From Dehalococcoidia bacterium (GTDB taxonomy: Bacteria > Chloroflexota > Dehalococcoidia > Lucifugimonadales > JAGWBF01), in assembly GCA_965261965.1 (NCBI GenBank), contig OZ253489.1:2459618-2523617 (forward strand): DNA of 64,000 nucleotides. Reading direction: 5' to 3'. The position numbers were made by a program, and so were the translations under genes. Shown one piece after another: positions 25,560 through 60,870 of this stretch; positions within the stretch are counted from its first letter, which is position 1; the number at the start of each line of letters is the position of its first letter. The notes under the pieces were generated by a model that worked only from the letters and a program-made list of their open reading frames with translations, did no database searches and was not told the DNA's origin.

Positions 25560-25765
25560 TTGCGCGAGGGCGGCTGAGGGAAGCCTTCCTGCGCCGCGAG
25601 GCTCTGCCCTACGCCACATACGCCTGGAGGATGTCCACAGCAGCGTCAAATTGGCTGGAACCGGCTTCACCGGCCACTTTGCTAGCCACAGCCCACTCCC
25701 CGCCGGAGGAGATACGGGCCGATATAATGGAATGGCATAGATCGGGAGACGTAGGGGTTGTTAAG

Positions 25766-27804: not shown

Positions 27805-29877
27805 TCAGACTCCATCAGCCTCCAACTGACACCCCTCCTCACGGAGACGTCGGAGGATTTCAATGGTTCTGAGGCTCTGCTTCTCAGATGGGACCTTAGC
27901 CGGCATCGAGATCGCTACATCTAGTATCCCTTGGTCATCCGGTGATAGGAATCCTCTAGACATTCCCCATGATTTGAGGTCACTCCAGAAAGCAGAACCA
28001 GCTTGGACCACGACCGTCTGAGCCTCAATCCCGTTCAGCATCCGCTGGTCTTTGACCGCACCTCTCTTCTCCTCATTCCGCTCGGCTGAACTGACCATCA
28101 TCCGTTGCAGTTCCCCGGGCCATTGCACAAGCAGTCCCATCACCCGATTCCAGCACGCCTGCTGCTTCGCCCACTCGGTCACGTTCCGCATACCATCTGG
28201 CGGATCGACGATCACGTCATGTACCGCCCTAGCTGCAACCACTAGGCTTCCCCGAAGTTCCAGGGAGATTCCCTGTTCCTGCCATATTCTCTCGAAGTTG
28301 ATTGATCGGCCACTCTGTGCCACGTCATGCGCGAGCTTGGCGATGGCATATGCTACGACGTTCGCCCGGTATCCGCCTTGGTACCAAGGCTGCTCCGTGA
28401 CCAGTCGCTCCACCGCCCTGAACACGATGGCCTTCGCAATCGCCTCTCGGTAGTACATCTCGTTGAAGTCGTTGGGGTGTCTGTTCCACTCCCCTCCAAT
28501 GAACGAGGCAAAGTCAGCAAAGTTCTTCTGTGCTCCCCTGCTCACGACCTCCGGTTTGTCATGCCAAACATTAAGAAACTTGGCGAGGTCCGTCTTGGTG
28601 AACATCTGTGCCTTCGGATATTCGAGGTCGAATCTTCTTCTCTCAGCCTGCGTGAGCCGACCCCGAGCGTCCTGATACTGACCCCGTGCCCGCTCGTAGA
28701 ACCACTTTGATTGTCGGAATGTTCCGTCCTTCGAGGGCGCGTACATTCTCGTAGAGAAGCCCTCGACCCTGATATGGAACGGGTGATTCGAGAAGAAGTC
28801 AGCCGCGCTGACGCGGTTCTGGGTGTTGGCATATTCCGATATCCTGGGGACGATCTCCATTGCCCTGTCTGGATTGACGATTGAGAGCTTCATCTGGACG
28901 AAAACCTTATCTAGGTCCGCCTCCTTGTTGCGAAGCGCCGCATGAATGGACGCCGTGGTCTGCCCTCCATTGACGATCTGAAAGTTGCGCATGCCGGTGA
29001 GGAGCAGGCCGTTAGGAGACTCCACGGTCTCGATGCTCTCTGCGGTGGCCGTAATGCCATTGTTGTAGGCGAAGAACATCTCCGGGTTGTTGTCAATCGT
29101 GTTCCTCAGCCCTCGATTGACATTCCCACGCGCCTGAAGGAACACGCGGACATTCTGTTCCAGCAAGCGGGCACCCCAGCGGCCATAAATCCTCGCGAGC
29201 TGATGCCCAGGAAAGACGGCGAGGTAGGACTCATAGTCGGTCTGCTGCATGTGCGCGGGCAGCACCAAGAGCGGGCCTCCGAACTCATTCAGGTTGACCA
29301 TGTAGTCCTCACGCTCATGCCCAGACGTGACGAAGCGGTGGAGGCGCCCCAAATCCCGTACGCTGTAGGTGACGGGGAGTCCTCGAAGTTGACCGGCCTC
29401 TCGGCCGTCCACCCTGGAGCTGAGCACCCTGTTGGTGACTAGGAACAGCCTCACCTTGGATACGGAAGGCCACCGTGCCGCGATGAGGTCGGCTAGGCCG
29501 AATGCGGGTGCCGATTCCTCCAAGCTGTTCCGAAATGCTTCATCCAGCGACCGGTCGAGAAAGTTGGACAGCCTCTTGAATGTTGCGTCCATGTTGGTCG
29601 CCGTCAGCGTTGCGATCTCCTGTGACTGGCTGAAGTCGGTGATGATCAGACTGAGCACCGCGTCGGAGTTGGCGGGGTCTCCACCATAGCCGTCAACTCG
29701 AATGCCCCGTGGGGAGACGTGGTGAACCCGGTCCGCCGTCTCAATCTCACCGGCATCTATCAGCGATTCCGTGAGTACATTGAAAAAGGCATCCTCCACG
29801 AACCTGCCCTCGGCATCGGCGAGGCTGTGAACCTCCTGAAAGAGTTCCTCGTGGTACTCTGCAATATCAATCGCCAT
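27805..29877 (-). CDS. AIPR-family protein
   Basis: 690 aa. It has the characteristic N-terminus (EYHEELFQEV...EDAFFNVLTE.L.D.GEI...) and an NGGQT motif (FQIVNGGQTTASIH). It is the last gene of the five-gene operon. Confidence 0.85.
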   Translation of the reverse strand: MAIDIAEYHEELFQEVHSLADAEGRFVEDAFFNVLTESLIDAGEIETADRVHHVSPRGIRVDGYGGDPANSDAVLSLIITDFSQSQEIATLTATNMDATFKRLSNFLDRSLDEAFRNSLEESAPAFGLADLIAARWPSVSKVRLFLVTNRVLSSRVDGREAGQLRGLPVTYSVRDLGRLHRFVTSGHEREDYMVNLNEFGGPLLVLPAHMQQTDYESYLAVFPGHQLARIYGRWGARLLEQNVRVFLQARGNVNRGLRNTIDNNPEMFFAYNNGITATAESIETVESPNGLLLTGMRNFQIVNGGQTTASIHAALRNKEADLDKVFVQMKLSIVNPDRAMEIVPRISEYANTQNRVSAADFFSNHPFHIRVEGFSTRMYAPSKDGTFRQSKWFYERARGQYQDARGRLTQAERRRFDLEYPKAQMFTKTDLAKFLNVWHDKPEVVSRGAQKNFADFASFIGGEWNRHPNDFNEMYYREAIAKAIVFRAVERLVTEQPWYQGGYRANVVAYAIAKLAHDVAQSGRSINFERIWQEQGISLELRGSLVVAARAVHDVIVDPPDGMRNVTEWAKQQACWNRVMGLLVQWPGELQRMMVSSAERNEEKRGAVKDQRMLNGIEAQTVVVQAGSAFWSDLKSWGMSRGFLSPDDQGILDVAISMPAKVPSEKQSLRTIEILRRLREEGCQLEADGV

Positions 29878-29883
29878 CGGAAC

Positions 29884-30876
29884 CTACCATCCTGCTAGGG
29901 CTTCGTTCAGAGCATCCACCGACGTTGCGAAAGGCTCGCAGTCGGCCAGCGAGACCGAGTACCGTACATTCGCGACACCCGATCGTATCTCGCCCGAAGT
30001 GATGCGAGGGAAGTTGCCAGTCACCCGATAGATGCGGCTCGCTCCCTCCAGCCAGCGGTTGCTGGAATAGTCGTCCTCCACCCTGTAGCCCGCCGCCGCC
30101 AGCCGCGTTTCGAGAATGCCGCATGAGCCTGGGTCGAGGGAGAAGAGGCGTCCGCGAATCCGCTCGGCCACGTCATGGAGGGTCACACCATGAGGGGCAT
30201 CCTCCGGGGACTCATCCAACTCCATCACATGTAGGAACAGCGAGTCAACGCCGCTCTCGTCCAGCTGATTCTCCGACGTGATTGAGACGGACGGCGTGGC
30301 TCCCCCGCGACGCGTCTTCGCCTCAATCGCAACCCGCGCAATCTCGAAGTCCTTGGGTGCACCCAACGGGCCGAGCCATGCCGTCACAGCAGATGAGGCA
30401 TCTATGCGGGGCAGTAGTAGACGCTCCAACACGAAGATCTCTCCGAGCAATCCCTTTTGTTCCTCCAGAGAGAGAAGGGTGCCACGCCCACCTCTGAGGA
30501 GATGGTGCCATCGCCATGTCCTCATCAGCGCATCAGACACCGCCCCAGCTTCGGACTCGGCCCGCGCGGCAGCAGAGATGATGTCCCGACAGAGGGTCTG
30601 GAAGATGTCCCGCTGGTTCGGGTCGAGCAGCTTGAATACGAGGAGTTGTGTGTCCGACTCATCGGGTGGGGACAGGGTCACCTCAATGTCACGCAGCCTT
30701 GGCAGGTGGGTGGTCGGTGCTGACCCTGTGGCGTGGCGCAGTGTGAGGAGAACGCTTCCGTCCACCCCCCGAGCCCAGAAGAAATCCCAGGGCAGGTTTG
30801 CGTCGACGCGACGAGCCGCGACCGAGTCGGCGATGCTGGGTGGGTCAATCTCCGCCCAAGGGTCTTCACCCATCAT
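29884..30876 (-). CDS. PD-(D/E)XK motif protein
   Basis: The start at 30876 (MMGEDPW) overlaps the Z1 stop by 11 nt. The nuclease-like core is GAPKDFEIARVAIEAKTRR. The ORF-track start at 30999 lies inside the Z1 gene. Confidence 0.75.
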   Translation of the reverse strand: MMGEDPWAEIDPPSIADSVAARRVDANLPWDFFWARGVDGSVLLTLRHATGSAPTTHLPRLRDIEVTLSPPDESDTQLLVFKLLDPNQRDIFQTLCRDIISAAARAESEAGAVSDALMRTWRWHHLLRGGRGTLLSLEEQKGLLGEIFVLERLLLPRIDASSAVTAWLGPLGAPKDFEIARVAIEAKTRRGGATPSVSITSENQLDESGVDSLFLHVMELDESPEDAPHGVTLHDVAERIRGRLFSLDPGSCGILETRLAAAGYRVEDDYSSNRWLEGASRIYRVTGNFPRITSGEIRSGVANVRYSVSLADCEPFATSVDALNEALAGW

Positions 30877-33586
30877 CGCCTCCCATCTCGTCCTCGTCGA
30901 CGTCCTCGCCGAAGTTCTCTCGGAGCCATGTCGTGTTGACCACGTACTCCACCCGCCGCTCCTCCCTGTTGGTTCGCGGAAAACTAATGCCCCATGCAAC
31001 CACTGGCTGTGTTGTGGGATCGCCTTGGCCCTCGGTATCTACGTTAATCAGGTGGACCATCAGAAGGGGCTTCGTCCTCACCTCTCTGTATGCCCGGTCC
31101 GGGTATTGGATCGGCCGGCCCTCGGCCGACCTGCCACTCCTCCCCGGATTCTCCCTGTACGTACGCTCCGCGCGCTCCCGCTCCTCACCGCTGAGGCCCG
31201 TTCGCTCGATCCCTCTGGTCGAGACCCTCTGCCGATTGCTGACCAAGAGGGTCCTCGCGTCGCTCCTCTTCCCGGCGGTTCTGTGCTGGCAACGAATAGT
31301 CCTACCAAGGGATTCGTCCGTTCGGTTGCCCTCACGTTGGCCCACGCTTGCGAAGAGCACGTCCCATTCCGCAAGCTCGTCGTCCTGGCGTTCCTCGATG
31401 TATCGCCTCACCGGTTCCCCGTTGGTCACCAACGAGCCATCGTGGTTTCGGAATTCAATCAGGAAGTCCAGTATGGGAGCCACCGGAACTCCCCGAAGAA
31501 GGAACCCGAAATTGTCCATCTCAGCAGCCTCAATGGGGAATCCGCTCTGACGGAGCCGGTGAGAGAGCCTCCGCGCGGCATTGCGGTCGACCTCCAAGCT
31601 CTCAGCATCCCTTCGAAGCGTGTGGGTCTCGATTAACCTGAACGCCAAGCCGATGCTCACCACTATCTGAGCTCCAGTTCCCATCTTATTGCGTGCGGTG
31701 ACGATCAGGGTATCCGGATGACTCCTGACCTTGAGTCCGAATTCCTCAGGTGTCGCATTGGAAGCCTCCATGCTCCTGAACTCACCTCGCAGTTCCTCAA
31801 TGGACTCTGCGACGTGCTCGTACCAACCCTCTGCCGCCTCCGGCATCCAGATGCGGCAGAGGTCCTGATAGTCCGGTCGATATCCGAACCACCGCCCCAT
31901 CTGCATCAATGTGTCGTACATCATGGAGTTGCGCAGAAAGTAGCTGACCATAAGTCCCTCGAGTGTCAGCCCACGGGACAGTGAGAAGCCGCCCACCGCT
32001 ATGACATTGAGACCGTCCTGCCGATTTCCGCTGTAGTCCAGCGTGCCAGGGGACTGAATGTTGACCTCGACCACCCTGATGGGAGAGGCGGCCTCATGCA
32101 GACGGCTCTGCACCTCAGCCCAATCGAACTCAGTGTCGCGGCACTCACGTTCCCAGACCGCGTGAAGTGCGTTGATCTCTGGGTCAAGGAGCGCTGTCTC
32201 CGGAGGCAGAGCCCCATTCACCCGAATGGAGCGTTGGATGCCATCAAGCTGCCCATGAATCTCATTGCGCAGTTGGCGCTGTACGTTCATGAAGCGGGAC
32301 GCGTTCACCAGCATTGAACAATGCTGTCGTTCGTGTCCTCTGGCGAGTCGAATGGCTCGGCCCAAGACGAAGGTCCTTACAGCATCGGTTAGGGATGGGG
32401 GGATGGAGGAGAGAACGATGTCCTTCTCATGTCTGATGGGAAGGTGGTCTTCGTTGTCCTCAATGGTGCGCATGTATTGGTCTCCGCCCTCAAGGAAGAC
32501 GGCGGTGGCTCCGAAGTAATTCGAGGGAGGATCAAGACTCACGATGAAACTGCGGGGGAACAGGTCCTCACCGCGCATCTGGTCGTCAGTGTCAGGGTCG
32601 ATGAAGATGTTGGCAAAGGGAGTGGCTGTGTATCCCAGGTAGCAACTTCTGCCGAACATGTGGAGGAGTTCGCGTATCTGTCCATTGATCCTTGAGACCT
32701 CGCCAGCTCCATGCCGGATGTTGATGGAGGCGTTGTCTGCTTCGTCATCGATCAGCAGCATCGGCTCATCAATGCTCTCGCCACCTCCCCGAGCGCTGTG
32801 CTCCCTGAGCCACTCGAGCAGATTCTTCAGCGTGCTGCTGTTCTTCTTGATCACGAACACGGCGGGCTCGGTGAGGTTCTGAAGGGGTATCCCGACGCCG
32901 GTTGCCGTCATCTTGTTAAAATCCCGGATGGTGTTGGTGAATGTGACCGGACGCCTCGTATGGTCGAATCGACCAACCCCCACGAACATGTCATCTTGCC
33001 TGCTCAGCAAGCGTGCGCTGTCCCGGCCCACGAAACCCTCGTCGATTCGTCGCTGTGTCTGGCTTCGCAGGTTGTTGTGGACACCCGCGATTACTACGAT
33101 CAACTTGTACCCTGCATCCGCGGCCTTGCATATAAGGCCCGCATAGTTGGCCGTCTTGCCCGATTGCACATGCCCAACAACCATCCCGCGCCTATCCCAA
33201 GGTCCATCCCTCAGAGGGTCCTGCATCAGTCCGAGCACACGTTCGGTGACGTCATCCAGCGTGTTGATCGCAGCGGTGGGAAACCCCTCTTGAATGAGGT
33301 GCTGTCTGTAGCGACTCCAGTAGTACGGATCTATCCGTGCCCTGGCAGCGTCCAGCCAGGGTTGGTGGTCACGCTTGATCAGAATGGAGCCGAGATGTTG
33401 GGTGATGCTCACACGTTCTTCGAACCGCTTTGCGAGCCTCTCCGCATCGTCCTCGGTGACACCCTCGAATATCGGCAACTGGCAGAGGTCCCCAATCAAC
33501 TTGCGGATATCCTCACCAGTCGGCCCCTGTTGATTGGCGAGAGCCGCGGCCACCATGCTTTCGAGGTTTGAGAGAGGGTCAGTCAT
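30866..33586 (-). CDS. Z1-domain P-loop NTPase
   Basis: 906 aa. Walker A is GHVQSGKTANYAGLI, followed by VIAGVHNNLRSQTQ. The Walker B-like motif is LLIDDEADNAS. Its start overlaps the upstream stop (ATGACTGA). Confidence 0.85.
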   Translation of the reverse strand: MTDPLSNLESMVAAALANQQGPTGEDIRKLIGDLCQLPIFEGVTEDDAERLAKRFEERVSITQHLGSILIKRDHQPWLDAARARIDPYYWSRYRQHLIQEGFPTAAINTLDDVTERVLGLMQDPLRDGPWDRRGMVVGHVQSGKTANYAGLICKAADAGYKLIVVIAGVHNNLRSQTQRRIDEGFVGRDSARLLSRQDDMFVGVGRFDHTRRPVTFTNTIRDFNKMTATGVGIPLQNLTEPAVFVIKKNSSTLKNLLEWLREHSARGGGESIDEPMLLIDDEADNASINIRHGAGEVSRINGQIRELLHMFGRSCYLGYTATPFANIFIDPDTDDQMRGEDLFPRSFIVSLDPPSNYFGATAVFLEGGDQYMRTIEDNEDHLPIRHEKDIVLSSIPPSLTDAVRTFVLGRAIRLARGHERQHCSMLVNASRFMNVQRQLRNEIHGQLDGIQRSIRVNGALPPETALLDPEINALHAVWERECRDTEFDWAEVQSRLHEAASPIRVVEVNIQSPGTLDYSGNRQDGLNVIAVGGFSLSRGLTLEGLMVSYFLRNSMMYDTLMQMGRWFGYRPDYQDLCRIWMPEAAEGWYEHVAESIEELRGEFRSMEASNATPEEFGLKVRSHPDTLIVTARNKMGTGAQIVVSIGLAFRLIETHTLRRDAESLEVDRNAARRLSHRLRQSGFPIEAAEMDNFGFLLRGVPVAPILDFLIEFRNHDGSLVTNGEPVRRYIEERQDDELAEWDVLFASVGQREGNRTDESLGRTIRCQHRTAGKRSDARTLLVSNRQRVSTRGIERTGLSGEERERAERTYRENPGRSGRSAEGRPIQYPDRAYREVRTKPLLMVHLINVDTEGQGDPTTQPVVAWGISFPRTNREERRVEYVVNTTWLRENFGEDVDEDEMGGDDG

Positions 33587-35060
33587 CCGGTAACTCCTCG
33601 TTGCAGTCTTCCTTCAGAATATGCTCCGTGCGCTCCCAGTTCGAGCGGAAAGGCTCCGCGACCCTCATCATGGTAAGCACGTCCTCGATTGACTTCATCC
33701 TTTTGCTGAGGTGAGTAAATGTCGTCACTGCTGCATAGCGCAGCGCCTGCTCCGAGGTAGCGCTGCCAACTACTGAGTCCACGTCGCCGCCGAGGTCGGA
33801 AAAGAGCGCATCCATCGGTAGCGACGCCCCTGCGACCTCAATTACTCTGCGGAGGTCGCCCCGTGCCTCTGGGGGCAATCTGGACAGAAGGTCAAGGACC
33901 ATTGGGTGCTCATCGTTGATTCGGTAGAATATCTGGTTCTTGTCCTGAATCCTGTTCCAGACGGGGATGTGGTTCTCCTTAATGAGCCTTCGGCCTCGGG
34001 TCCGGTAAACTCTCTTTGAATTTGCTGCCAGCGGCTCGATGATGCGGCGCAACCGTTCTCGAACCGGCGGTGGCAGCTGCGCAGATGCCTTCTTCACATC
34101 AATCTTCCAGGCTGCATCGAGCGCATTCGGCATATCGATGCGGACGCGCGCCAGCTTCGTGAGCTCCGTTTGACGCGCCAAGCCAAACCATGTGCCATGA
34201 ATGATCAACCGCCGCTCCCTGTACACGTAGAAACCCTGGTTCCTGAGATAGCCCTCCGGTCCTGCGTAGTGTTCCCATTCTGCGGGTGTGACCTTCCCAT
34301 GGTGCGGGAGGGTGAATGCCTGTACCAGCACGTCCTCATGTGCAACTCGAATTCGCTCCTTAGGGCCTGCAATCGTCGCTGAGTGGCTGGAATGGAAGGG
34401 ATCAAAGGGATCCAAGGACCGGTTGTTCATCTGAATGCTGACCCTACGGCGTCCCGGTTCACCGGAGAGGAAGCGATGGAATACCAGCTCTAGGTGGGAC
34501 CGGGCCTCATCCATCTGCCGCACAAAGTCAGTCATATTCCGACCGGAGTCTCCATCATCTGTTCCGAGGCCGAGTTCCTCCCAAACAACGAGTGTCCCAC
34601 TTGCTCCAAGAAACTCCGTCCAAGGGATGGATGTCAGGTCGTCAGGTATCTGGACTTGCCACCTGCCTGACTCGGCAATTCGGTCCAAGTCCCATCGGGC
34701 AATCGCGGTAGCTCCCTTGGTTCGCGTAACCACAGTGACTACACGGCATTGGGAAAATGAGGCCGTCTTCAAGCCTAGACCAAAACGGCCGAGATCGGAC
34801 TGCGCCCTTTCCTCCAAGGGGCTGCGGCTCCCCAGTCGCATTGCCTCTAGGAGTTCCTCTTCGGTCATCCCCACTCCGTCATCCAGAATGCCAATCTTCA
34901 AGTCGGGTGCTTCCAGACTTGCGAGTATCTGGATTGTCTCCGCCCGTGCCGCTATGCAGTTGTCCACGAGATCGGCAAGGGCGGTGCTCAGCGAGTATCC
35001 GATGGCCCGTATGCTTTCGATGAGTGGAGATGGCTTGGGTGGAATCTCAAGGACGCGCAT
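33579..35060 (-). CDS. GHKL-superfamily (MORC-like, HATPase_c_3) ATPase
   Basis: 493 aa. The N-box is ALADLVDNCIAA, G1 is LDDGVGMTEEEL and G2 is GRFGLGLKTAS. It overlaps the methyltransferase stop by 14 nt. Confidence 0.85.
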   Translation of the reverse strand: MRVLEIPPKPSPLIESIRAIGYSLSTALADLVDNCIAARAETIQILASLEAPDLKIGILDDGVGMTEEELLEAMRLGSRSPLEERAQSDLGRFGLGLKTASFSQCRVVTVVTRTKGATAIARWDLDRIAESGRWQVQIPDDLTSIPWTEFLGASGTLVVWEELGLGTDDGDSGRNMTDFVRQMDEARSHLELVFHRFLSGEPGRRRVSIQMNNRSLDPFDPFHSSHSATIAGPKERIRVAHEDVLVQAFTLPHHGKVTPAEWEHYAGPEGYLRNQGFYVYRERRLIIHGTWFGLARQTELTKLARVRIDMPNALDAAWKIDVKKASAQLPPPVRERLRRIIEPLAANSKRVYRTRGRRLIKENHIPVWNRIQDKNQIFYRINDEHPMVLDLLSRLPPEARGDLRRVIEVAGASLPMDALFSDLGGDVDSVVGSATSEQALRYAAVTTFTHLSKRMKSIEDVLTMMRVAEPFRSNWERTEHILKEDCNEELPDD

Positions 35061-36966
35061 TTATCACCCCAGTTCCCGTGGCACACGAGGCGCGAACGGG
35101 GCATTCATCGCACTTGGGAGCGCGGGCCGTACAGACCATCGCACCTAGGTCTAGCAGTGCCTGATTCCATTGCGCATCTGCTCCGCTGTGTCCAGCCAAT
35201 TCACGTAGGGAGAGCCTGAGCCGCCAGTTCGGTTGGTTGGAGCCACCCAACAGCCTACGAGCTATTCTCACGGTGTTTGTATCCATCAGGACGCTGGAGC
35301 GCCCGAAGGCGAAACAGAGCACAGCGGAAGCTATATAGTCTCCCACGCCTGGGATAGTGGTCAGTTCCTGCCAGTTGTCGGGAACCGTTCCTGCCAGCCT
35401 GTCCCTGACGAACTCCGCCGCAGAAACCAGATTCGCAGACCGCCAGTGGAGGCCGAGCGAGGCCAGCATCGGCGCCAGTCCTCTCCAGTTGCCCAAAAAT
35501 GAATCCGGGGTTTCACCAAGACTGAGGAGGTTGTCCGCGACCCGGGCCACTTGGTCAGCCCTTGTGCGGTGGAGGCACATTTCCAATAGCAGAATCTGCC
35601 AGGGGTTCAGATTGGGACGCCTCCACGGAAACTCCCGTTTGTTTTCCCTGAACCACCTGGCGAGGTCGTCTTGGAAGGATATCCCGTTCGCCGGTTGACG
35701 GCTGGTGGTCCCAGCATTGACCTCCCTGTCTTCGAGAGCATCTCTCACCGACGAGGCTATTGCTGAAGCGAGCAGAGGGGGAACAGCATTGCCTATCTGC
35801 TGATACCTGCTCGATGGGTGGCCCGCAAACCGGAATCTATCTGGGAAGGTCTGAATTCTGGCCGCCTCTCGTATGGAGAGGGTTCGGTCTTCCCTTGGGT
35901 GAATGTACCAATAACCATCCTTGGCTATATGGGCGGTGATGGTCCTTGACAGGCCATCGAAAGACAATCTCAGGTATTTGTCGTTGAAAATGTCTGACCG
36001 GTATCTTCGCAAGTGTTCCGGTACATCCAGATAGATGTCACCGGGTTTCAGCAATTTGTAGATTTCAGCATCGTCCGGTCGGACCGATCTCGTTACGTGG
36101 TCACGAACAAGCAGAGCTTCGGTGCCTCTTAGTCCTGTGCGTAACGATCTCGCAAGCGCCGAGGTCGGTGGTCCCTCATAGATCTGGGCCTCGTCTCGAA
36201 CACCTGCTTGCACTACCGGCAGGTCTCCGATAGCCTGTCCAACTGTAGGTCGCCTTCCTATGGGCTTAGGCCACTCGAACTCCCCATCCTCCGCGATTCC
36301 AATCACAAAGAGTCTCGACCTATGCTGCGGAACGCGGTACCTCCACGCCTCCAACACCTGTACGTGCACCCCATATCCCCTGCTCGACAGTTCGTCCATC
36401 AAAGCGATCAGCAATGCTCCTCCTTGTGCTTGAGCGAAGTTCGGAACGTTCTCGAAGAGCATTGCCCGCGGGTGCAGGCGGTCAACGACGGCAAAGAAAC
36501 TGCGCCAGAGGTCGGCTCTTTCGTCGCGCGGGCGTCGGCTCCCTCTCCTCACCAAGTCACCGATCTTTGAGGTGCCAGCCGTAGAGAATGGCTGGCATGG
36601 AGGGCCGCCTGCAAGAAGGTCTACGGTTTCGATGCCCCAATCGTCCAGCTGACAAAGGAACTCAGTGGGGCTGGAAAGGTCCCCGGTCCATGTTAGACCC
36701 TGAATGTTCGCAGCATGAGTCTCCATCGCCACGGGATCGGAATCGGCGGCGGCAACCACTGAGAACCCCGCCTTCTCAAGTCCCAGGCTCAATCCCCCGG
36801 CTCCACAGAAGAGATCTATGGCCCACGGGCGAGGTCTGCTCGCGAGCCACATGCGCACACCGGCATTGTCGTTCGGGTCGGGGGAACTGCAGTGAGGGTC
36901 AAGGCTGATACGCGGTCCACGACGGACCGCAACCCCGTACCGTGAATTGCGTTTGGTGCCATCCAT
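35047..36966 (-). CDS. DNA (cytosine-5) methyltransferase fused to a MutY/Mig-like HhH-GPD [4Fe-4S] glycosylase domain
   Basis: C5-MTase motifs are DLFCGAGG, GGPPCQPFS, FENV, QHRSRLF and QIGNAVPP (aa ~48-400). C-terminal aa ~431-639 carry the HhH IPGVGDYIASAV, the Asp in MDTN, and CX6CX2CX5C (C612, C619, C622, C628). Confidence 0.9.
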   Translation of the reverse strand: MDGTKRNSRYGVAVRRGPRISLDPHCSSPDPNDNAGVRMWLASRPRPWAIDLFCGAGGLSLGLEKAGFSVVAAADSDPVAMETHAANIQGLTWTGDLSSPTEFLCQLDDWGIETVDLLAGGPPCQPFSTAGTSKIGDLVRRGSRRPRDERADLWRSFFAVVDRLHPRAMLFENVPNFAQAQGGALLIALMDELSSRGYGVHVQVLEAWRYRVPQHRSRLFVIGIAEDGEFEWPKPIGRRPTVGQAIGDLPVVQAGVRDEAQIYEGPPTSALARSLRTGLRGTEALLVRDHVTRSVRPDDAEIYKLLKPGDIYLDVPEHLRRYRSDIFNDKYLRLSFDGLSRTITAHIAKDGYWYIHPREDRTLSIREAARIQTFPDRFRFAGHPSSRYQQIGNAVPPLLASAIASSVRDALEDREVNAGTTSRQPANGISFQDDLARWFRENKREFPWRRPNLNPWQILLLEMCLHRTRADQVARVADNLLSLGETPDSFLGNWRGLAPMLASLGLHWRSANLVSAAEFVRDRLAGTVPDNWQELTTIPGVGDYIASAVLCFAFGRSSVLMDTNTVRIARRLLGGSNQPNWRLRLSLRELAGHSGADAQWNQALLDLGAMVCTARAPKCDECPVRASCATGTGVINARP

Positions 36967-36995
36967 GCGACTATTTATGCTATCCTCTCAAAACT

Positions 36996-37442
36996 CTATA
37001 GAGGCGCGGACCACTCGCCAACCCAGTGGACATTCCCGGCGCTCTCTGCCGCCCGGTGAAATCTCTGGTCGGCGGTCCACAACTCACAGCCAAACTCCTC
37101 CGCCAGCGCCAAGTAGTGGGCATCGTACACCGCCCCTTGGCTGAGTTGACTCGCCAACTCTAGCGCCCTCACATGAAGACTTGGCGACTGGTGCAGTTCG
37201 AGCCGGGACCCGAGTAGCCGGGTCATCATGCGGGCGCTGTTGCCGACGCTCAACTGGCCGCGTGTCACCCTCCTGTGAAGGGCGTTAGCAACCTCGAATG
37301 GCATCAGGTAGGGGGCGATGCGAGTTACGTCATGGCTAACCCAAGATTCGAGAACCGCGTGGGCCTTGTCAGAGTCTTCCTCATCAACGAGCCACTTGAC
37401 GGCTAGACTCGCATCAACGACAACAACCCCGTTCATGCCCAT
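36996..37442 (-). CDS. vapC: PIN-domain toxin VapC
   Basis: 148 aa with the PIN pattern VVVDASLAVKW...E...YDAHYLALAEE....WTADQRF. It overlaps the antitoxin stop. Confidence 0.8.
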   Translation of the reverse strand: MGMNGVVVVDASLAVKWLVDEEDSDKAHAVLESWVSHDVTRIAPYLMPFEVANALHRRVTRGQLSVGNSARMMTRLLGSRLELHQSPSLHVRALELASQLSQGAVYDAHYLALAEEFGCELWTADQRFHRAAESAGNVHWVGEWSAPL

Positions 37443-37735
37443 GCCTCGGTTTCGGCATTCCGAAGCTCTCTGGCCTCCCTGATCAGGTCGGCAGAGTTAC
37501 CAGGCAGAGGCTTACCACCGAATATCTCCTGGCGGAGTTCTGCAAACATCTCATGGTCTGGCTTGTCAGCCAGCAGTTCGCCAGCGCCACCATACTCGTC
37601 CTTCGTCAACTCCCGGTCGATGGCGGCTTGGCAATACCCGCGCATGCTGACGCCCTTGAGCGCGGCGATAACCTTCAGCCGACGTTGAAAGGCGGGGTCC
37701 AAGTCCAAGGTGAGCCTTTTCTTCTTGGTTTCCAT
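37433..37735 (-). CDS. RHH/CopG-type antitoxin
   Basis: 100 aa. KKRLTLDLDPAFQRRLKVIAALKGVSMRGYCQAAI is a ribbon-helix-helix signature. The gene is paired with the PIN gene. Confidence 0.65.
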   Translation of the reverse strand: METKKKRLTLDLDPAFQRRLKVIAALKGVSMRGYCQAAIDRELTKDEYGGAGELLADKPDHEMFAELRQEIFGGKPLPGNSADLIREARELRNAETEAWA

Positions 37736-37901: not shown

Positions 37902-40032
37902 TTAGCGCCCCGCGCCGACCGGCTCCGTCTCCTGTTCCAGTGCCCACTCGAACATCGAAAGGGTGGCAGGCTGCGGCTTGCGGCCCCGGCCCTTGGGCTT
38001 GACCGGCTCGGCCATGAACTCCGCCCAGGAGAACAGCGACTGCTGCGGCTCCGGGTCCTCGTCGCGGTGGCCGTTCCCGTTGACCGGGGCAGGCGCATGG
38101 CTGTTGCCGTTGACGTGGTGGCCGTTGGTCAGCACTAGCTCGACCGTCGGCCCAATGCTGCCTGCGTGGTGACTGTTGCCGTTGACCGCGACGGCCTCCG
38201 GCTCTACCTCGACCGCCTTCCAGCCGTCATCCACGAGGTACTCCTCCGAAGCGGCCTCGGCGTCCCTGGCCTGGGCGAAGACCGACTCCACCGTCTCCGC
38301 CTCGTCTTCCTCCTCGTCGCCACTGACGATCCTGCGGGCCAGCGCCATCATCAGGTCGTCGCCGTCGTCGCCGTAGGCCGCCAGGCCGTCCTCCGGCAGT
38401 TCGCCCTCCACCGCCAGCGAGCTTTGCAGCTTCTTCGCCACCAGCTTGAGGGCGTCGGCCTGGAGGGTGTTCCGGTAGGACATGAACACCACCTTCACCG
38501 GGCGGGTCTGCCCGATGCGCCACGAGCGGCGGGACGCCTGCCGCATCACGTATACCGAGTAGTCGGTCTCGTACCAGCAGATGGTGGGGAAGTCGATGAG
38601 GTCGAGGCCGGTCTGCACCAACCTGGGGTGGCAGATGAGCACGTCGATGCCCTGCTTGACCTTATCCGCCACCCACGCCTCCCGGCGGTCCGGGGCCACG
38701 GCGTCGGCCTTCATCACCGCCACCCTGAACCCGTGCCGGGTGAGCATGTCGTCCATCCGCTCGGTGATGTCCCGCGTCCCGGTGTGGGTGGCGTAGACCA
38801 GCACCCGGCGGCCCTCCATGCGCTCGGCGGCCACGAGGTCGATGAGGGCCTTCTCCTTGGGATAGAGCTTGTCCTCATGCAGAGGAGGAACCTGGACTAT
38901 GACGTTGCCGCTCCGAGGGTCGAACACCGTCTCTCCCTTCGTGCACCCGTCAGGGTAGGCCAGCAGGGTTTGCAGGTAGGTCGCCAGCAGCCGCTTGGAA
39001 CCCTTCTTCAGGGCCTCGGCCAGCTCCCTCCGCAGCTCCTCGAACACGGTGTTGTAGGCGCTGCGCTGGGAGAACCCCGTCCCGTCCTCATCCGAGTCCA
39101 TCGAGGACAGCATTACCTGCTCCTCGTAAGGGGGCAGCCCGGAGGCCACGTCGGACAGGCGAAGGAAGACGGTGTTACCGATGAGGTGGAACAGCGCCGA
39201 GGGCACGAGGCCGGGCCGCTCCTTGACCACCTTGCGGTACTTCTTCCTGCGGCTGTACCTGCCATCCTCCGTCGAGTCGTCGTCGGGCTTGCCGACGGTG
39301 TGCTCCTCAAAGCCGTACCGCTGTATCCAGCGGCGCTCCTCCGACCGCCCGAACTCCGTCCTGATCTCCGGGCTGAACCTGTAGAGCAGGTGGAAGATGG
39401 TCGAGGAGTAGCCGCCAAGGAGGGTTCCCGTCAGGCTGAGGGACTTGCCGCAGACGTCGGCGAGGACGCCGGCGGCGATGCCCTGGGCCGAGCCGCGCCC
39501 CTTGTACTCGTGGATCTCGTCACCGACCAGCAGGTCGAAGAATCCCTTCATGTGGTGCTTCACGTAGTCGGCGAGGGGGTAGCGGGCGGGACCGGACCTG
39601 TCGGCCTGCCAGAGGGGAGCGCCGCAGTCGGGGCAGGTGTGCTTCCTGCGGTTCAGGTCCTCGTCGGTGAGGGGAACGCCGTCTTTGTCCACGATTTGCG
39701 CGGTGCAGGCGGGGCAGCAGGGGACCCGGAAGGGCTCCCCCGTCTCCTCGTCCCTCACCAGCCTGCCCTTGGACACGGCCCACCGCTCGATGACGGCGGG
39801 AATCCAGCGGTAGGACAGCTTGGCCTTCTCACGGCTCATCACCGCGAAGAGGGGGCCGGAGCCGACGGAGAAGCGCAGCCGCTCCAGGTCGGTGATGGAG
39901 CCGACGATGGCGGCGCGGGCGCCGGGCACCGTCTGCTCCACCTCCCGCTTCCACTTCTTGGTCAGGTGCGGCGGGCAGAGGATGAGAATCCTCTCGAAGC
40001 CCGCCATGTGCGCTGCTGCGGCGGCGAGTAAG
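37902..40032 (-). CDS. SNF2/DEAD-like helicase, exon 2 (3' of the group II intron)
   Basis: Motif II is VGDEIHEYKG, the zinc ribbon is CPAC...CPDC, and helicase-C motif VI is RQASRRSWRIGQ. The frame stays open upstream of the ORF-track Met (..LLAAAAAHMAGFERILILCPP) up to the intron 3' end. Confidence 0.8.
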
Positions 40033-40090
40033 GTAGGCCGCCGGCGAGTTACCCCGCGTTAGCGGGGCACTTTTCCGTCGGCCCCCTTCC

Positions 40091-40124
40091 GAACCGGACG
40101 TGCGGCTTTCACCGCATCCGGCTC
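40091..40124 (-). ncRNA. group II intron domain V
   Basis: The minus strand reads GAGCCGGAUGCGGUGAAAGCCGCACGUCCGGUUC: 34 nt with the AGC triad, a 2-nt bulge and a GAAA tetraloop. Confidence 0.85.
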
Positions 40125-40149
40125 TCCAGTGTCATTGTGGGTAGTGTCA

Positions 40150-40183
40150 GTAAAAGCAAGTACCGCGCCGGGTGGCGCGGTAC
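40150..40183 (-). terminator. intrinsic terminator after the intron-borne lipoprotein gene
   Basis: The minus strand reads GTACCGCGCC-ACCC-GGCGCGGTAC (10-bp perfect stem) followed by TTGCTTTTAC. It lies 26 nt after the stop at 40209. Confidence 0.5.
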
Positions 40184-40208
40184 GTTGTGGTTATGGGTCG
40201 TTAGGCAG

Positions 40209-40802
40209 CTAGGAACAACTGAGGACTTCCAGCACGGCGTCGTCAAACGCCTCAATCGCCCTGCCGAGTGTTGTGTAAGCTTCCTGCATCTCCGGGCCTT
40301 TGCGGTACTCGTTCCAAGCCTCTTCGTCCTCATACGACAGAGAACGATGTTCCTTTGCGAACCTCACTATCAGTTGGTCCAGCGCCACACTGGCCTCTAA
40401 GGAATCTCGAAGTTCCGCCGGGGGCTCGTTATTCTCAAGGAAGTCGATGACCTTCTGCACCCGGTCTGCCTTCTCGCCCCAGGTGGCTACCTCCTGTTCG
40501 GCGGCAACGAGAGCGCAAGCTGCCTCCATGTACTCCCGCGTCTCTCTGCTGATCCCTGTGCTCTCACCGACCTCCGCAGCCTCCGTAGGTTCGGGCGTCG
40601 GAGTGGACGCCGGGGGCGATGTTGCGGTTGAGGGGCTGCCAGTTGTGGCACCAGGGGTGCTGGTGCTGGACGAGCCGCCACAGGCGGTCAGGGCCAGGGT
40701 TAGCGCAGCCAAGCCAAGCAGCAGGACGAGGATGGGCCATTGACGGCCCTGGGCCTGCTGCGGGGAGCGTTGCCTATTCGTATGCTCAAATTCAGAAGTC
40801 AT
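40209..40802 (-). CDS. putative lipoprotein encoded inside the group II intron
   Basis: 197 aa with a signal peptide and lipobox (LALTLALTAC), a Ser/Thr/Pro linker and an alpha-helical acidic domain. GGGAGGA lies 7 nt before the ATG. It sits between the IEP stop and domain V. Confidence 0.65.
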   Translation of the reverse strand: MTSEFEHTNRQRSPQQAQGRQWPILVLLLGLAALTLALTACGGSSSTSTPGATTGSPSTATSPPASTPTPEPTEAAEVGESTGISRETREYMEAACALVAAEQEVATWGEKADRVQKVIDFLENNEPPAELRDSLEASVALDQLIVRFAKEHRSLSYEDEEAWNEYRKGPEMQEAYTTLGRAIEAFDDAVLEVLSCS

Positions 40803-40834
40803 GCGCCATCCTCCCTGTGCAGGGGTTAACTGGT

Positions 40835-40863
40835 ATTTTACCAGAGTACGGCGGAAATGTCAG
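40835..40863 (-). promoter_or_regulatory. sigma70-like promoter for the intron-borne lipoprotein
   Basis: The minus strand reads CTGACA - 17 nt - TAAAAT, with TGG just upstream of the -10 box. It ends ~32 nt upstream of the ATG at 40802. Confidence 0.45.
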
Positions 40864-40988
40864 TTACCAGAGCGTGAACTCTGGTGGGACTAACGGTATC
40901 CGTATCGTGACTATGTGCCTGCTGGGGAGAGCGTTGCTGGGGCCTCAGTCGTCTGAGTCGTGACACTACCTACTGTTGCTTGCGCGGA

Positions 40989-42797
40989 TTACTTGCGCCC
41001 GTGGTGGATGTCCATGTGACACGTCCGGCAGACCACGAGGGTCTTGCGCCGCCGCGCCGCCATGATTTGTACCCACCTGGGCTTTTCCCGTTGGCCTTTC
41101 ACGTTCAGGTCGCGAAGTGCGCGGATGTGGTGAACTTCTACGTCCACTGCCGACCCGCACATCTCGCACTCGTCCGCTTCGAGCCGTTTGATAAGCTCGT
41201 TGCGGCCGCTCCTGTACCGTTGGGGCTGTTGGTCTACGAGGACGGCCTGCCGTTGCCGTTTCAGGGGGATGCCACCGAAATATGCCACGCGAGGTGGCTT
41301 GCCGTTGTCCCGTTGCCTGACGACCTTGAGACAGACGCGCGGCCCGTGCTCGGTTTCCACGACGCTCTTGTACTGGCGTCGCATCTTCCGTGCGGTGGAC
41401 TTGTGCTTTGCCGCAAGGGTCCGTGTCAACGACATCTCCATGACCGATTGCAGTCGCCCGAAATGGGCGACGTTGGAGGCCAGGAGGTAGTAGTTGACGA
41501 CGCCCCGGAACTCCGACTGGTACTGTGCCACGATGGAGAAGTCTTCATCGTGGAGTAGGTAACTGCGGTGTGCCGGTTTGCCTTTGCGCATGTAGGCTTG
41601 GCAGTGTTGTTCGATGACGTTGGCGGGGACCCGCAATCCGATTTGGCCGTTGACCCTGCGCCGACCATTGCGGTCAAACTGGTCGTTGGCCTGTTGGTTC
41701 ACGAGTTCGTAGCCGAGGAACCGCGCCGCCTGGCTGGTGGCGTGGGTTATGAGAGTTTTCTCCTTGGATAGCTCCAGCTTGAGTGTGTCGCGCAGGAACG
41801 TCTCCAAGGACTCTTTCACCTGTTGGGCTTCGACCTTTGGCCCGATGAAACCCAGCACGAAGTCGTCCGCGTAGCGCACGTACCGTAACCGGCGGTAGCC
41901 GGGGTCGTAGGGGTCACGTGATGGCAGTTGTTGCATTTGCTTGCGCAGTTGCAGTGCCTCGGCGTGGTTCCCCCGCTTCCTCTGGCGGGCCGCTTGGTTC
42001 AGCAACCGTGTGTACTCGCGGTTGTCTCTCCGCTCTGTGCCTCGGGTGTGGGCTGGTATCAGCACGTTCTCGACAAACTTGTCCAACCGGTCTAGGTAGA
42101 TGTTGGCGAGGAGAGGGCTGACGATGCCGCCTTGCGGTGTCCCGCTCAGCGTGCGACCGTATTGCCAATCCTCAACGTAGCCTGCTTTCAGTAGGTACTT
42201 GAGCAGGCGTAGGAATCGGTTGTCGTGGAGTTTCTCGCCGAGCACCGACAACATGACCTCGTGGTCGATGTTGTCGAAGCACCCTTTGATGTCGCCCTCG
42301 ACGAACCAGCGGACACCAGACCAGTAGTCCACCACGTTGCTCAAGGCGGTGTGGCAACCCCGGTCGGGCCGAAAGCCGTGGGAGCGGTCGGAAAACTGCG
42401 GCTCGTAGTAGGCTTCCAGAATCATCCGGATGACCTCTTGCAACAGCTTGTCCGGCCCAGTTGGTATGCCCAAGGCGCGGGTCGTGCCGTTAGGCTTGGG
42501 AATGTTGACCCGTCGCACCGGCGTCCACCGGAACCGCTCGTAGCGCAAGGCTTCGATGATGCGGTCGATTTTCGCCAGTGACATACCATCCATGGTCTCT
42601 GCGGTGACGCCTTTGGTCGTAGCCCCCTGGTTTGAGTAGATACGACCGTAGGCCCGCAGGTAAAGGTTCCGGTTGTACAGCAGCCGATAGATGTTCTCCA
42701 GCGGCAATCCTCGTTCTCCGCGTTCGCGTATGACGTTCAGTACAGTTTCGGCGTTTTGCATTCTGCATACCTCTCTGTGTTTGTTCGTCGTTGACAC
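40989..42797 (-). CDS. group II intron reverse transcriptase/maturase with HNH endonuclease domain
   Basis: 602 aa. RT blocks include RRVNIPKPNGTTRALGIPTGPDKLLQEV, HGFRPDRGCHTAL and YVRYADDFVLGF. Maturase X is present. The C-terminal HNH is CEMCGS...HHI...CRTCHMDIHHG. Confidence 0.95.
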   Translation of the reverse strand: MSTTNKHREVCRMQNAETVLNVIRERGERGLPLENIYRLLYNRNLYLRAYGRIYSNQGATTKGVTAETMDGMSLAKIDRIIEALRYERFRWTPVRRVNIPKPNGTTRALGIPTGPDKLLQEVIRMILEAYYEPQFSDRSHGFRPDRGCHTALSNVVDYWSGVRWFVEGDIKGCFDNIDHEVMLSVLGEKLHDNRFLRLLKYLLKAGYVEDWQYGRTLSGTPQGGIVSPLLANIYLDRLDKFVENVLIPAHTRGTERRDNREYTRLLNQAARQRKRGNHAEALQLRKQMQQLPSRDPYDPGYRRLRYVRYADDFVLGFIGPKVEAQQVKESLETFLRDTLKLELSKEKTLITHATSQAARFLGYELVNQQANDQFDRNGRRRVNGQIGLRVPANVIEQHCQAYMRKGKPAHRSYLLHDEDFSIVAQYQSEFRGVVNYYLLASNVAHFGRLQSVMEMSLTRTLAAKHKSTARKMRRQYKSVVETEHGPRVCLKVVRQRDNGKPPRVAYFGGIPLKRQRQAVLVDQQPQRYRSGRNELIKRLEADECEMCGSAVDVEVHHIRALRDLNVKGQREKPRWVQIMAARRRKTLVVCRTCHMDIHHGRK

Positions 42798-43271
42798 CTG
42801 TCCTCCTTCGCCATGTGCCGGGCTTTCCCCGGCTCGGACTACTATGAGGACTCCGTGACCATAGGGGTCTCCCCCCGTAGGCCATCCCGCGTTCCGTTGA
42901 CATAGGACGTTCTAGCGCGACTGTAGGTGCCCCGTTCGTTCCCTTGAATTGACCGCATCGGTCATCGTCCACTCATCGGAGTTGCATTGGTACCTTCATC
43001 GTACCGAGGCAATGAGTGGCGCCGGGTTACAAGCGTTCTACCGGCGGGTGGCAAGAACACCAACTGGGAACTGGGGTTCAGGCAGTCTAGCTTTCACCGT
43101 ATCGCGCGGGCCTTGCGGAACCAGTCCTACAACGCTTTGGGACTGTAGCCGCTTTACCGACATGCTGTTGTCCCCCTAGGCTTTCGCTTCGAGGTAGGTC
43201 GGTTGGCCCAAGAACTTTCTCCGAGTTCTTCCTAGCTGAGCTAGGTATCCTATGCCGCGTAACGCGGCGCA

Positions 43272-43498
43272 CTGAAGGTCTTGCCGGTGCCCATCTCGCC
43301 AACGACGGTGGTGCCCCGGTGGGCTTCGAGGGAGAGGGCCGCGCCCCGTATGGCGTCCTCCTGCGCCCCCAAGGGCTTGCGGAGCAGGCGGGGGAGCTTG
43401 TGGCCGTTCTCCGAGGGCCGGTAGAGGGGCGGGTAGGACTCCACCACCCGCCGGGCGATGGCCTCCTTGAACGTGTCGATGAATCCTCCGAGGTTCAT
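43272..43498 (-). CDS. SNF2/DEAD-like helicase, exon 1
   Basis: It encodes MNLGGFIDTF...TTVVGEMGTGKTF (Walker A). AAGGAG lies before the ATG. The ORF-track tail SAPRYAA* is read-through into the intron. Confidence 0.8.
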
Positions 43499-59887: not shown

Positions 59888-60690
59888 GAGCGTGTCCCAT
59901 AAACCCTCTTTCCGGGGGTTGGTGAAGGAGTAAGCTGATAGAAACAACAGGTAGGTACGATACTATGGCTTATAAGCTTCTGCGCTGGGAGCGAGACCAG
60001 AGCTACTTGATGCCGCCGTCCATGAGGGATTGGTTGAGCGAGGGTCACCTGGCCTGGTTCATTGTGGATGCAGTAGGGCAGATGGATGTGAGGGAGTTCT
60101 ATGCAGTCTACCGAAGTGATGGCTGGGATGCAGCGGCCTACGATCCGGGAATGATGGTGGCCATCCTGTTGTACGCCTACTGTCTGGGTCTACGGAGTTC
60201 CAGGCGCATAGCCCGTGCTCTCGAGGAAGATGTAGGTTTCCGGGTGGTGGCGGCCAACCGGCAGCCAGACTTCCGTACCATCTGTCGCTTTAGGGCGGAG
60301 CAGGAGGAGGCGATCGAGGAGCTCTTTGTAGAGGTACTGAGGTTATGCCATGAAGCGGGTCTGGTGAAGCTGGGGGTAGTGGTTCTTGATGGGAGGAAGG
60401 TGGCAGCCAACGCGGCGCTGGCCACCAACCGGAGCCACCAGGCCATTGAGGGAAGAAGTGCAGCGCATGTTGGCAGAGGCCAAGGCAGCGGATGCTGAAG
60501 AGGATGGCCATTACGGGTCCTGCCCGGCGAGGGGATGAGCTACCGGAAGGGCTGGGAGGACGTACGGAGCGTCTCAAGCGCCTGAAGGAAGCCAAGGAAC
60601 GTCTGCAGCGGGAGGCTGAAGCAGCAGCCTAGGCTGTCCAAGAGCACGTGGAGCAACGGCGGGCAGAAGAAGAGGCCACAGGCAAAAAGA
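59888..60690 (+). pseudogene. decayed IS1182-family element (5' two-thirds)
   Basis: It has the same terminus, GAGCGTGTCCCATAAACC, and an N-terminus highly similar to 877..2268. A frameshift occurs near 60452 and an in-frame TAG near 60630. Homology is lost after ..TGKKKRE. Confidence 0.8.
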
Positions 60691-60699
60691 AGCGGGAGC

Positions 60700-60870
60700 G
60701 GCCCTCTGTTGAGGAGGCCGGTGGGAAGGCCGCCGAAGAAGCCCATCATCTGGTACGACGACTTCTGGTATCAAGCGGGGAGTTGGGACCGACCGCGTCG
60801 GGTGATAGCCAAGGTAGAATGGCACCAGGGAGAGCTATTCCCTAGAGTGGGCTTCATCGTCACCAATATG
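60700..60870 (+). pseudogene. fragment of an IS4/IS1380-superfamily transposase
   Basis: The isolated peptide YQAGSWDRPRRVIAKVEWHQGELFPRVGFIVTNMS lacks the rest of the gene. Confidence 0.5.

Follow-up and report, generated by a model that had tools for sequence, protein, structure and literature searches.

A probable passenger-gene cassette for a small lipoprotein within a group II intron of a Dehalococcoidia bacterium

Introduction

Bacterial group II introns are textbook minimal selfish retroelements, composed of a ribozyme and one protein. Bacteriophages are known for morons, accessory genes that form transcription units of their own between a promoter and a terminator and that often encode envelope proteins. 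Among engineered group II introns (targetrons), one published account (PMC8524655) describes a loss of efficiency when cargo is carried. Full-text literature searches returned targetrons, twintrons and LAGLIDADG introns only and no natural passenger genes in bacterial group II introns; the coverage of these searches was incomplete, and an earlier mention is possible. Here we describe a group II intron that interrupts a helicase gene in a 64,000-nt stretch of DNA (hereafter the window) from a Dehalococcoidia bacterium (GenBank assembly GCA_965261965.1, contig OZ253489.1, positions 2,459,618 to 2,523,617 of the forward strand). Between the gene of its intron-encoded protein (IEP) and ribozyme domain V (DV), this intron holds a second open reading frame (ORF), for a 197-amino acid (aa) lipoprotein. 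We consider it likely that the second ORF belongs to a true cassette for a passenger gene, and that the group II intron around it is active, LtrA-like and endonuclease-bearing, of the mitochondrial-like (ML)/IIA type.

Structure of the intron and its cassette

An earlier note on this DNA, made from the letters alone, had estimated ∼865 nt between the stop codon of the IEP and DV, and had read into this space a promoter (CTGACA-17-TAAAAT), a Shine-Dalgarno sequence (SD), a 197-aa ORF with a lipobox, and a hairpin followed by a U-tract. The distance was measured at 862 nt, and all four elements were recovered on the minus strand, enclosed by the two arms of a helix:

40970..40961, minus strand: 5' arm of the closing helix, GGTAGTGTCA (fold prediction and conservation)
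40863..40835, minus strand: sigma-70-like promoter, CTGACA, 17-nt spacer, TG-n-TAAAAT (a consensus match, with putative function)
40815..40809, minus strand: SD, GGGAGGA, 6 nt before the ATG
40802..40209, minus strand: cargo ORF lipoA, 197 aa, with signal peptide, ...LALTAC lipobox, linker and four-helix-bundle domain
40682..40680, minus strand: codon of Cys41 in the lipobox LTAC, within the cargo ORF
40183..40151, minus strand: GC-rich hairpin (40183..40160) and TTGCTTTTAC, the terminator-like end of the cassette
40149..40140, minus strand: 3' arm of the closing helix, TGACACTACC, 13 nt upstream of DV (fold prediction and conservation)

The 10-bp helix closes an 811-nt loop between the IEP stop and DV. 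In a fold of the last 1,001 nt of the intron its arms pair across 821 nt with probabilities of 0.82-0.999 per pair (at least 0.99 for 9/10). With few exceptions, the inserts of the loaded copies described below have GGTAGTGTCA at their start and TGACACTACC at their end. RNAduplex, applied to both junction windows, was swamped by pairings of the terminator hairpin and gave poor z-scores; the helix was tested instead by an anchored alignment with pair counts, together with the full fold. Among the 16 distinct versions aligned, an 8-bp core of the helix is paired in nearly every sequence, with two-sided changes at 5 pairs, a number reached by 15/500 shuffles, and with 4/4 one-sided changes yielding G-U pairs. 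As the helix varies little, its support from covariation is modest. Such a helix may be what makes the cargo tolerable to the ribozyme.

The promoter sequence is the sole promoter-like match in 3.7 kb, with a score of 10/12 (shuffles give 0.6 ± 0.8), and its -10 element sits within a perfect 6-bp palindrome, CTGGTAAAATACCAG (CTGGTA..TACCAG). Across alleles of the 5' untranslated region (5'UTR) that are otherwise ∼70% identical, the -35, extended -10 (TGnTAnAAT) and SD blocks are kept; the conserved blocks number four, namely ACTGACA, CGCCGTAC.CTGGTAWAATACCAG, CCCCTGCACAGGGAGGA and the start region. A TGnTAnnnT motif also stands upstream of the ORF in most of the unrelated sense-strand cargos found in other copies of the intron. 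The cassette hairpin comprises 10 bp, 8 of them GC pairs (-19.8 kcal/mol), and is followed by TTGCTTTTAC; both are common to all cassettes sharing this promoter and leader chassis, including those with other cargo, and the stem shows compensatory changes. Judging from their sequence and conservation, the two elements would act as promoter and terminator of the cassette.

The loop of the cassette hairpin (window positions 40170-40173) reads ACCC in most copies and GGGT in two of them (L025 and L027; L numbers denote individual loci of the family), which, in a palindromic hairpin, indicates that the hairpin as a whole was inverted in those two.

The intron itself is complete, and its parts, with the intron-binding sites (IBS) of the exon and the exon-binding sites (EBS) of the intron, are as follows:

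43273..43498, minus strand: helicase exon 1 (SNF2-like), ending ...GEMGTGKTF
43285..43280, minus strand: IBS2, GGCAAG, in exon 1
43279..43273, minus strand: IBS1, ACCTTCA, in exon 1
43272..40028, minus strand: complete group II intron of 3,245 nt, from GTGCG to CCTACCTTAC (...CCTTAC at 40028)
43055..43050, minus strand: EBS2, CTTGCC, with 6/6 pairs to IBS2; co-varies with the exon across the family
42998..42992, minus strand: EBS1, TGAAGGT, with 7/7 pairs to IBS1; co-varies with exon 1
42797..40989, minus strand: IEP, 602 aa, bearing domains of a reverse transcriptase (RT), a maturase and an HNH endonuclease (Pfam)
40126..40028, minus strand: domains V and VI (Rfam RF00029, Intron_gpII)
40027..37902, minus strand: helicase exon 2 (Helicase_C, Pfam), beginning IAAAAAHMAGFERIL

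When joined, the two exons read GTGKTF/IAAAAAHMAGFERIL (GTGKTF/IAAAAAH), in frame and within helicase motif I, and EBS2 and EBS1 together form a perfect complement of the final 13 nt of exon 1. Domains V and VI (DV-DVI) match the full Rfam model with 65.5 bits (gathering score 40; E=1.2e-10), and the upstream domains I to IV give a sub-threshold match to group-II-D1D4-1 (21.9 bits vs 35). The IEP was matched by the Pfam families RVT_1 (2.7e-30), Intron_maturas2 (1.8e-12) and AI2M-like_HNH (4.2e-14). Its nearest solved structure is LtrA of Ll.LtrB (E=1.5e-127, full length), and because of this relationship the intron is assigned to the mitochondrial-like/IIA kind with an endonuclease domain. 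The intron ends seen in the window recur in 73 family copies (window counted). In each defining feature that was compared (ends, DV-DVI, IEP domains and EBS/IBS pairing), the intron agrees with mobile group II introns. A candidate closure of domain IV is predicted by RNAfold between GUGUCA, in the final codons of the IEP, and UGACAC just 5' of DV.

Homologs of the interrupted helicase are mostly plasmid-borne (326 plasmid records, 117 of them conjugative, vs 5 phage records), and the neighbours of the gene encode a DUF6094 methyltransferase, a Cas4-like exonuclease and a CHC2/Toprim primase. On the strength of these homologs and neighbours, the host gene is placed in a module resembling those of plasmids or integrative conjugative elements (ICEs).

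Distribution of the insert among related introns

Related introns were collected by an IEP search with one genome per species, which resulted in 77 loci, all from Dehalococcoidia/Chloroflexi metagenome-assembled genomes and with 77-98% IEP identity. From these, 73 intron copies were delimited, the window included and all in Dehalococcoidia genomes. Nineteen of the 73 are bare, with a length of 2,404-2,412 nt, an IEP ending in ...HHGRINPQKQT and a stop codon 6-12 nt from DV. A further 33 are loaded with 339-3,941 nt at the position of the window's cargo (site 2), and 22 have an insert at a second site (site 1). The two sites are nearly mutually exclusive, a single copy (L008) being filled at both. 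The arrangement is also compact in each of 13 remoter relatives (42-60% IEP identity), which come from viral contigs. The earlier note had proposed a comparison with related introns, and had conceded that the ORF would be spurious if close relatives showed the same spacing without it. Close relatives were instead found to lack the insert altogether, and others hold different genes in its place. Bare, differently loaded and identically loaded introns thus coexist among IEPs that are 77-98% identical, and the cargo, present or absent among close relatives, is dispensable for the intron.

At site 2, the lipoprotein of the window (lipoA) is also carried by L003, L025, L027, L061 and L065, and a second lipoprotein that shares its leader (lipoB) by L001, L002, L010, L029 and L030. 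Other contents of this site include DUF3224 (7e-41), a DUF4377 lipoprotein (1e-11), DUF429-like proteins (weak match), DUF805 (5e-12; on the antisense strand, in L004 and L006), and several other lipoproteins and membrane proteins. Since these contents match curated families, the site evidently holds real genes.

The second site is empty in the window:

42898..42899, minus strand: second cargo site (site 1), TATGTC/AAC, ∼100 nt upstream of the IEP start

In relatives it is filled with 190-610 nt (L009, L013, L015, L017-L019, L022, L026, L028, L031, L032, L052, L058, L072 and L074), the longest ORF being nearly always antisense and encoding a small membrane protein. Several of these proteins share a AENKVRMSDPILR..LLDDAI motif, and Pfam returned nothing useful for the site-1 cargo ORFs. 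Judged by eye, site 1 may lie within a putative hairpin loop. Antisense cargos, that is DUF805 in L004 and L006 and the ORFs of site 1, cannot be read from the intron transcript, and the family therefore evidently uses internal promoters.

Some loci of the family have undergone further rearrangement. Head-to-tail tandem arrays of three and two introns are found in L009 (3264-9796) and L013 (2910-8528), where the 3' end, CCTATCCTAC, abuts the GTGCGCC of the next copy, and L061 has a 22-nt piece of the intron 5' end (6774-6795) past its 3' splice site. The cargo loop of L048 (5809-9751) contains three transposase-like ORFs and is for this reason 3.9 kb long. An IS630-like element lies in domain I of L033 (2154-3995), and in L080 (1923-2950) the intron is cut short, upstream of the cassette, by a DDE_5 element.

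Mobility of loaded introns

Loaded introns that are 100% identical were found in host-gene paralogs with flanking kilobases only 78-89% identical: L001/L002 (3,223 nt), L047/L049 (3,011 nt) and L011/L012 (3,269 nt). The window intron and that of L003 are 98.6% identical, with flanking exons at 82-86%. Identical loaded introns in diverged paralogs imply recent movement of the intron together with its cargo. Most copies occupy the GEMGTGKTF/I site, and the rest are in other conserved motifs of the same plasmid/ICE-like module, which is an insertion hot spot for the whole intron family. The motifs hit are helicase GTGKTF, FIDTFKD at the helicase N-terminus, DEVHE, methylase EHAFLT and primase-like CPFHDEAEGS (L020-L077 junctions; in the window, 43273, 43460 and the 44550 region). 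At these other sites EBS1 and EBS2 are altered to fit their own exon, with EBS1/IBS1 pairs such as ACTCGTG/CACGAGT and CGTCGTG/CACGACG, and the cargo-bearing copies L027, L053, L063 and L066 are no exception. In sequence terms, such exon-matched changes are the signature of working retrohoming. Whether mobility survives the cargo, a question raised by the earlier note, can thus be answered by comparison in the affirmative, from the identical loaded copies in diverged paralogs and from EBSs that match their own exons.

Exchange of cassette parts

Similarity to the window copy forms a mosaic along the intron. L030 combines an IEP gene 87.9% identical at the DNA level with a cassette 5'UTR that is 99.4% identical, and in L065 the IEP gene is 97.2% identical and the 5'UTR only 70.5%. 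None of the 5'UTR allele, leader, mature domain and 3' end tracks IEP identity. One leader is fused to three unrelated mature domains (lipoA, lipoB and DUF4377, the last in P0058), and in L014 and L035 the start of the leader is kept and is then followed by a different ORF. Mosaic similarity and swapped domains together indicate that the contents of the loop change by recombination between intron copies; a first capture by template switching of the reverse transcriptase is possible.

The most divergent lipoA relative (39% identity), on a TARA ocean scaffold (L078), lies in the same cassette with a 5'UTR 77% identical. The contig ends in 45 nt of DV that are 100% identical, and its IEP is only 54% identical. 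The pattern suggests movement of the cassette and the intron 3' end from one distant intron to another, and it places members of the family in marine samples as well.

The encoded lipoprotein

The cargo protein begins with a positively charged n-region, a hydrophobic stretch (WPILVLLLGLAALTLAL) and an LTAC lipobox with Cys41, followed by a linker rich in Pro, Thr and Ser (aa 44-80) and, at aa ∼85-197, by a four-helix-bundle domain that contains a conserved pair of cysteines, Cys96 and a C-terminal Cys. These features suggest that it is lipidated and surface-exposed. AlphaFold2 modelled residues ∼90-190 as a helical four-helix bundle with a predicted local distance difference test score (pLDDT) >90. 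Approximately 30 full-length lipoA homologs (53-98% identity) and two distant ones (38-41%) keep the frame, with all indels in frame; C41, G43 (29 homologs), W108 and PP127-128 are invariant, and Cys96 and the C-terminal Cys nearly so. A profile of the C-terminal domain gathered 98 representative clusters, mostly lipoproteins of 130-200 aa with the pattern EY..C..TWG..PP.ELR..C, and a few larger proteins that bear the domain at their C-terminus. Homologs, open frame, fold prediction and profile relatives all mark the ORF as real rather than spurious.

All homologs for which context was read sit in an intron or intron remnant. Among them, P0019 has an intact intron around it and P0024 one that an insertion sequence (IS) has cut in its 5' part, and P0037, from a TARA ocean contig, follows an IEP that is just 54% identical. 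Three domain relatives had flanks long enough for a judgement; all three are ordinary genes of the chromosome, and no IEP, DV or cassette sequence was found nearby. No relative turned up when JGI metagenome contigs were scanned with the lipoprotein alignment, and the family seems confined to the sampled ENA, NCBI and Logan assemblies. We conclude that the cargo was captured from a so far unnamed family of lipoproteins, and that its surface is changing fast on a fold that is kept.

Proposed mechanism

In the mechanism that we propose, the 811 nt of cargo would be looped out by the conserved 8-10-bp helix between the end of the IEP ORF (3' domain IV) and DV, which would leave the catalytic core free to fold, splice and retrohome; structure prediction, helix conservation and the recent spread of copies all point this way. 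The cassette would be its own transcription unit, in which the 197-aa prolipoprotein would be produced from a sigma-70-type promoter, its -10 extended, and a strong SD, and the GC hairpin with its U-tract would end the unit just before the 3' arm of the helix. The prolipoprotein would then be exported, lipidated at Cys41 and held on the outer face of the membrane, where a Pro/Thr-rich tether of ∼40 aa would bear a disulfide-capable four-helix bundle. Site 2 is a lineage-wide cargo slot, with one promoter and leader chassis serving at least three mature domains and with unrelated genes held by other introns.

As to the role of the cargo, we suggest with low confidence that phage morons are its nearest functional analogy, and that it may be an accessory, fast-diversifying surface gene of use to its host or to the plasmid/ICE-like element that houses the intron; the rapid diversification prompts a guess, of equally low confidence, at exclusion or receptor masking. 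A broader proposal is possible, though we think it less likely than not: that the intron lineage is a natural gene-delivery retroelement, whose cargo loop or loops and reusable promoter/signal-peptide chassis capture, shuffle and spread host surface-protein genes among plasmid/ICE-like copies, with the lipoproteins engaged in an arms race (e.g. through exclusion or receptor masking). Were this so, group II introns would be vectors of adaptive genes and not purely selfish.

Alternative explanations

A number of observations weigh against an autonomous cassette in an active intron, and they are taken here together with the explanations that they would favour. The alternative that survives best, although we regard it as unlikely, is that the cargo gene is real and non-autonomous. 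It would be translated from a host-gene, intron or IEP transcript, the 'promoter' being an RNA hairpin or a protein-binding palindrome and the 3' hairpin an element that serves structure or RNA stability. The promoter and the terminator are matches to a consensus. Pairing of the -10 palindrome, which is also formed in RNAfold, persists through G-U wobbles (L001 and L014) and a compensatory change (L035); an RNA hairpin or an operator would fit it as well. In several other cargo inserts the GC hairpin at the end lacks a U-tract, and a working terminator 5' of DV should reduce the yield of full-length intron RNA, to the detriment of the intron. However, the promoter match combines its score of 10/12 with an upstream TG and stands alone in its surroundings, and the -35 block is conserved though it lies outside the palindrome. 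The TGnTAnnnT motif, moreover, recurs before cargos of unrelated sequence, and antisense cargos need internal promoters.

We give still less credence to the idea that the ORF is a decaying or neutral remnant in a permissive loop. The ratio of nonsynonymous to synonymous divergence (dN/dS) over the whole ORF is ∼1 and is therefore no proof of purifying selection; domain-wise values, an IEP control and a simulation of the open frame were used instead. In close pairs the C-terminal domain has a dN/dS of ∼1-5, with a dN about equal to the dS of the IEP for the same intron pairs, and differences are spread almost evenly over the three codon positions (0.28, 0.29 and 0.33). On their own, such rates are as compatible with relaxed constraint as with diversifying selection. 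The lipoA of L027 (5995-6085) has two in-frame stops in its leader, such that a start is possible only at a GTG inside the signal peptide, and is probably a decaying copy; IS elements also pile up in the loop, as in L048. Against decay, dN/dS of the domain drops to 0.3-0.7 in distant pairs (0.2-0.3 for the IEPs of those introns), and the frame stays open, with indels in frame, where random substitution would leave it so less and less often: the simulated chance of remaining stop-free is 0.43 for the closest lineage and 0.16, 0.08, 0.05, 0.02 and 0.002 in more diverged ones. The Cys pair, W108 and the PP motif are kept, the fold is confident, the promoter and SD blocks are conserved, and ∼10 of the ∼11 copies found via the IEP alone are intact.

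The homology and structure searches that the earlier note had called for delivered homologs and a confident fold and yielded no functional match, which likewise does not favour a passenger gene. Foldseek of the model against the PDB returned generic four-helix bundles only (E of at least 0.77), PHROG gave weak matches confined to the signal peptide and linker, and PADLOC and Pfam returned nothing for the cargo protein.

It is very improbable that the cassette is an independent DNA transposon, similar to a miniature inverted-repeat transposable element or an IS, with GGTAGTGTCA...TGACACTACC as its 10-bp terminal inverted repeats. Perfect 10-bp inverted repeats do flank the insert, and the contents between them vary. 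However, there is no transposase and no target-site duplication at the arms (AGTA on one side vs CACA on the other), the insert is always at the same intron position, and the four loci outside introns that were examined showed no cassette sequence. L008 and L021 have the helix around a loop of just 15-23 nt, with the cargo 5' of it, and this marks the helix as a structural hairpin of the sublineage and not as a transposon terminal repeat. The one-sided changes, moreover, all give G-U pairs, a distinction of consequence for an RNA but not for DNA repeats.

Two juxtaposed or nested elements (a twintron or tandem introns) can be dismissed, even though head-to-tail tandem copies exist elsewhere in the family (L009 and L013) and the earlier note had allowed for a second DV directly after the IEP: the Rfam search found a single DV-DVI and no second one in the window even at E≤1, the 862-nt gap contains no second IEP or RT ORF and no second GTGCG 5' end, and the sequences on either side of the insert are contiguous in compact relatives. 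With regard to a diversity-generating retroelement, no repeat of the cargo ORF was seen in the window.

If the insert is, as we favour, a passenger-gene cassette in an active group II intron, it belongs to a lineage in nature in which unrelated genes are routinely carried and swapped and which spreads all the same, and this would make retrohoming a route of horizontal gene spread. For cargo-tolerant targetrons, the lineage would offer a natural design, in which one loop is closed by a helix lying between the IEP ORF and DV and another is placed ∼100 nt upstream of where the IEP starts. It would also be a tractable system for the coexistence of a ribozyme with a promoter and a terminator inside it. 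Finally, it points to an unnamed, rapidly diversifying family of small four-helix lipoproteins with a Cys pair.

Other features of the window

Directly downstream of the helicase (27805-37735) lies a five-gene cluster of AIPR, DUF4420 (PD-(D/E)XK), Z1, HATPase_c_3 and a C5 cytosine methylase, and at 36996-37735 a PIN-domain-like ORF with a small upstream ORF has, by eye only, the look of a vapBC toxin-antitoxin pair. Two repeats, at 6934-8390 and 25756-27212, are 99% identical over the 300 nt compared, and each overlaps an ORF for a 441-aa DDE_Tnp_1_4 transposase (Pfam run on the second copy only). An inverted repeat of 785 nt, 93% complementary, lies near both ends of the window (1535-2318 and 59915-60700). 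A surface protein of 1,740 aa with FN3, cadherin and Ig-like domains is encoded at 19448-24670, with 12-nt tandem repeats at 19909-20088.

Comparison with known systems

Twintrons, IStrons and LAGLIDADG group II introns share with the window intron the presence of coding sequence beyond, or instead of, the RT. The extra sequence in those systems is reported (PMC4649490 and PMC13190283) to be a mobile element or a mobility protein, whereas here it is an ordinary small lipoprotein family with no mobility function.

The cassette resembles phage morons in its predicted layout of promoter, single ORF and terminator, in being dispensable to its carrier, and in its presence or absence among close relatives. 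It differs in that the carrier is a retroelement RNA, so that the unit has to be tolerated by the ribozyme around it and copied by reverse transcription.

With engineered Ll.LtrB targetrons, the window intron has in common foreign DNA in a peripheral loop of domain IV, a core that would still fold and cargo that would be copied by retrohoming. No homology of the stem-loop to subdomain DIVb is implied. Targetrons are man-made and usually ORF-less, whereas the window intron is natural, has its IEP in cis and belongs to a family in which loaded copies have spread.

With the natural introns of the Ll.LtrB type (IIA), the window intron shares a full-length LtrA-homologous IEP, GUGYG...AY ends, DV-DVI, targeting by EBS/IBS pairing and homing into a conserved motif of a gene from plasmids or ICEs. 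Known members of this type carry the IEP as their only gene, whereas the intron described here has an extra stem-loop that holds a second, unrelated gene with its own putative expression signals, and its lineage has a second cargo site.

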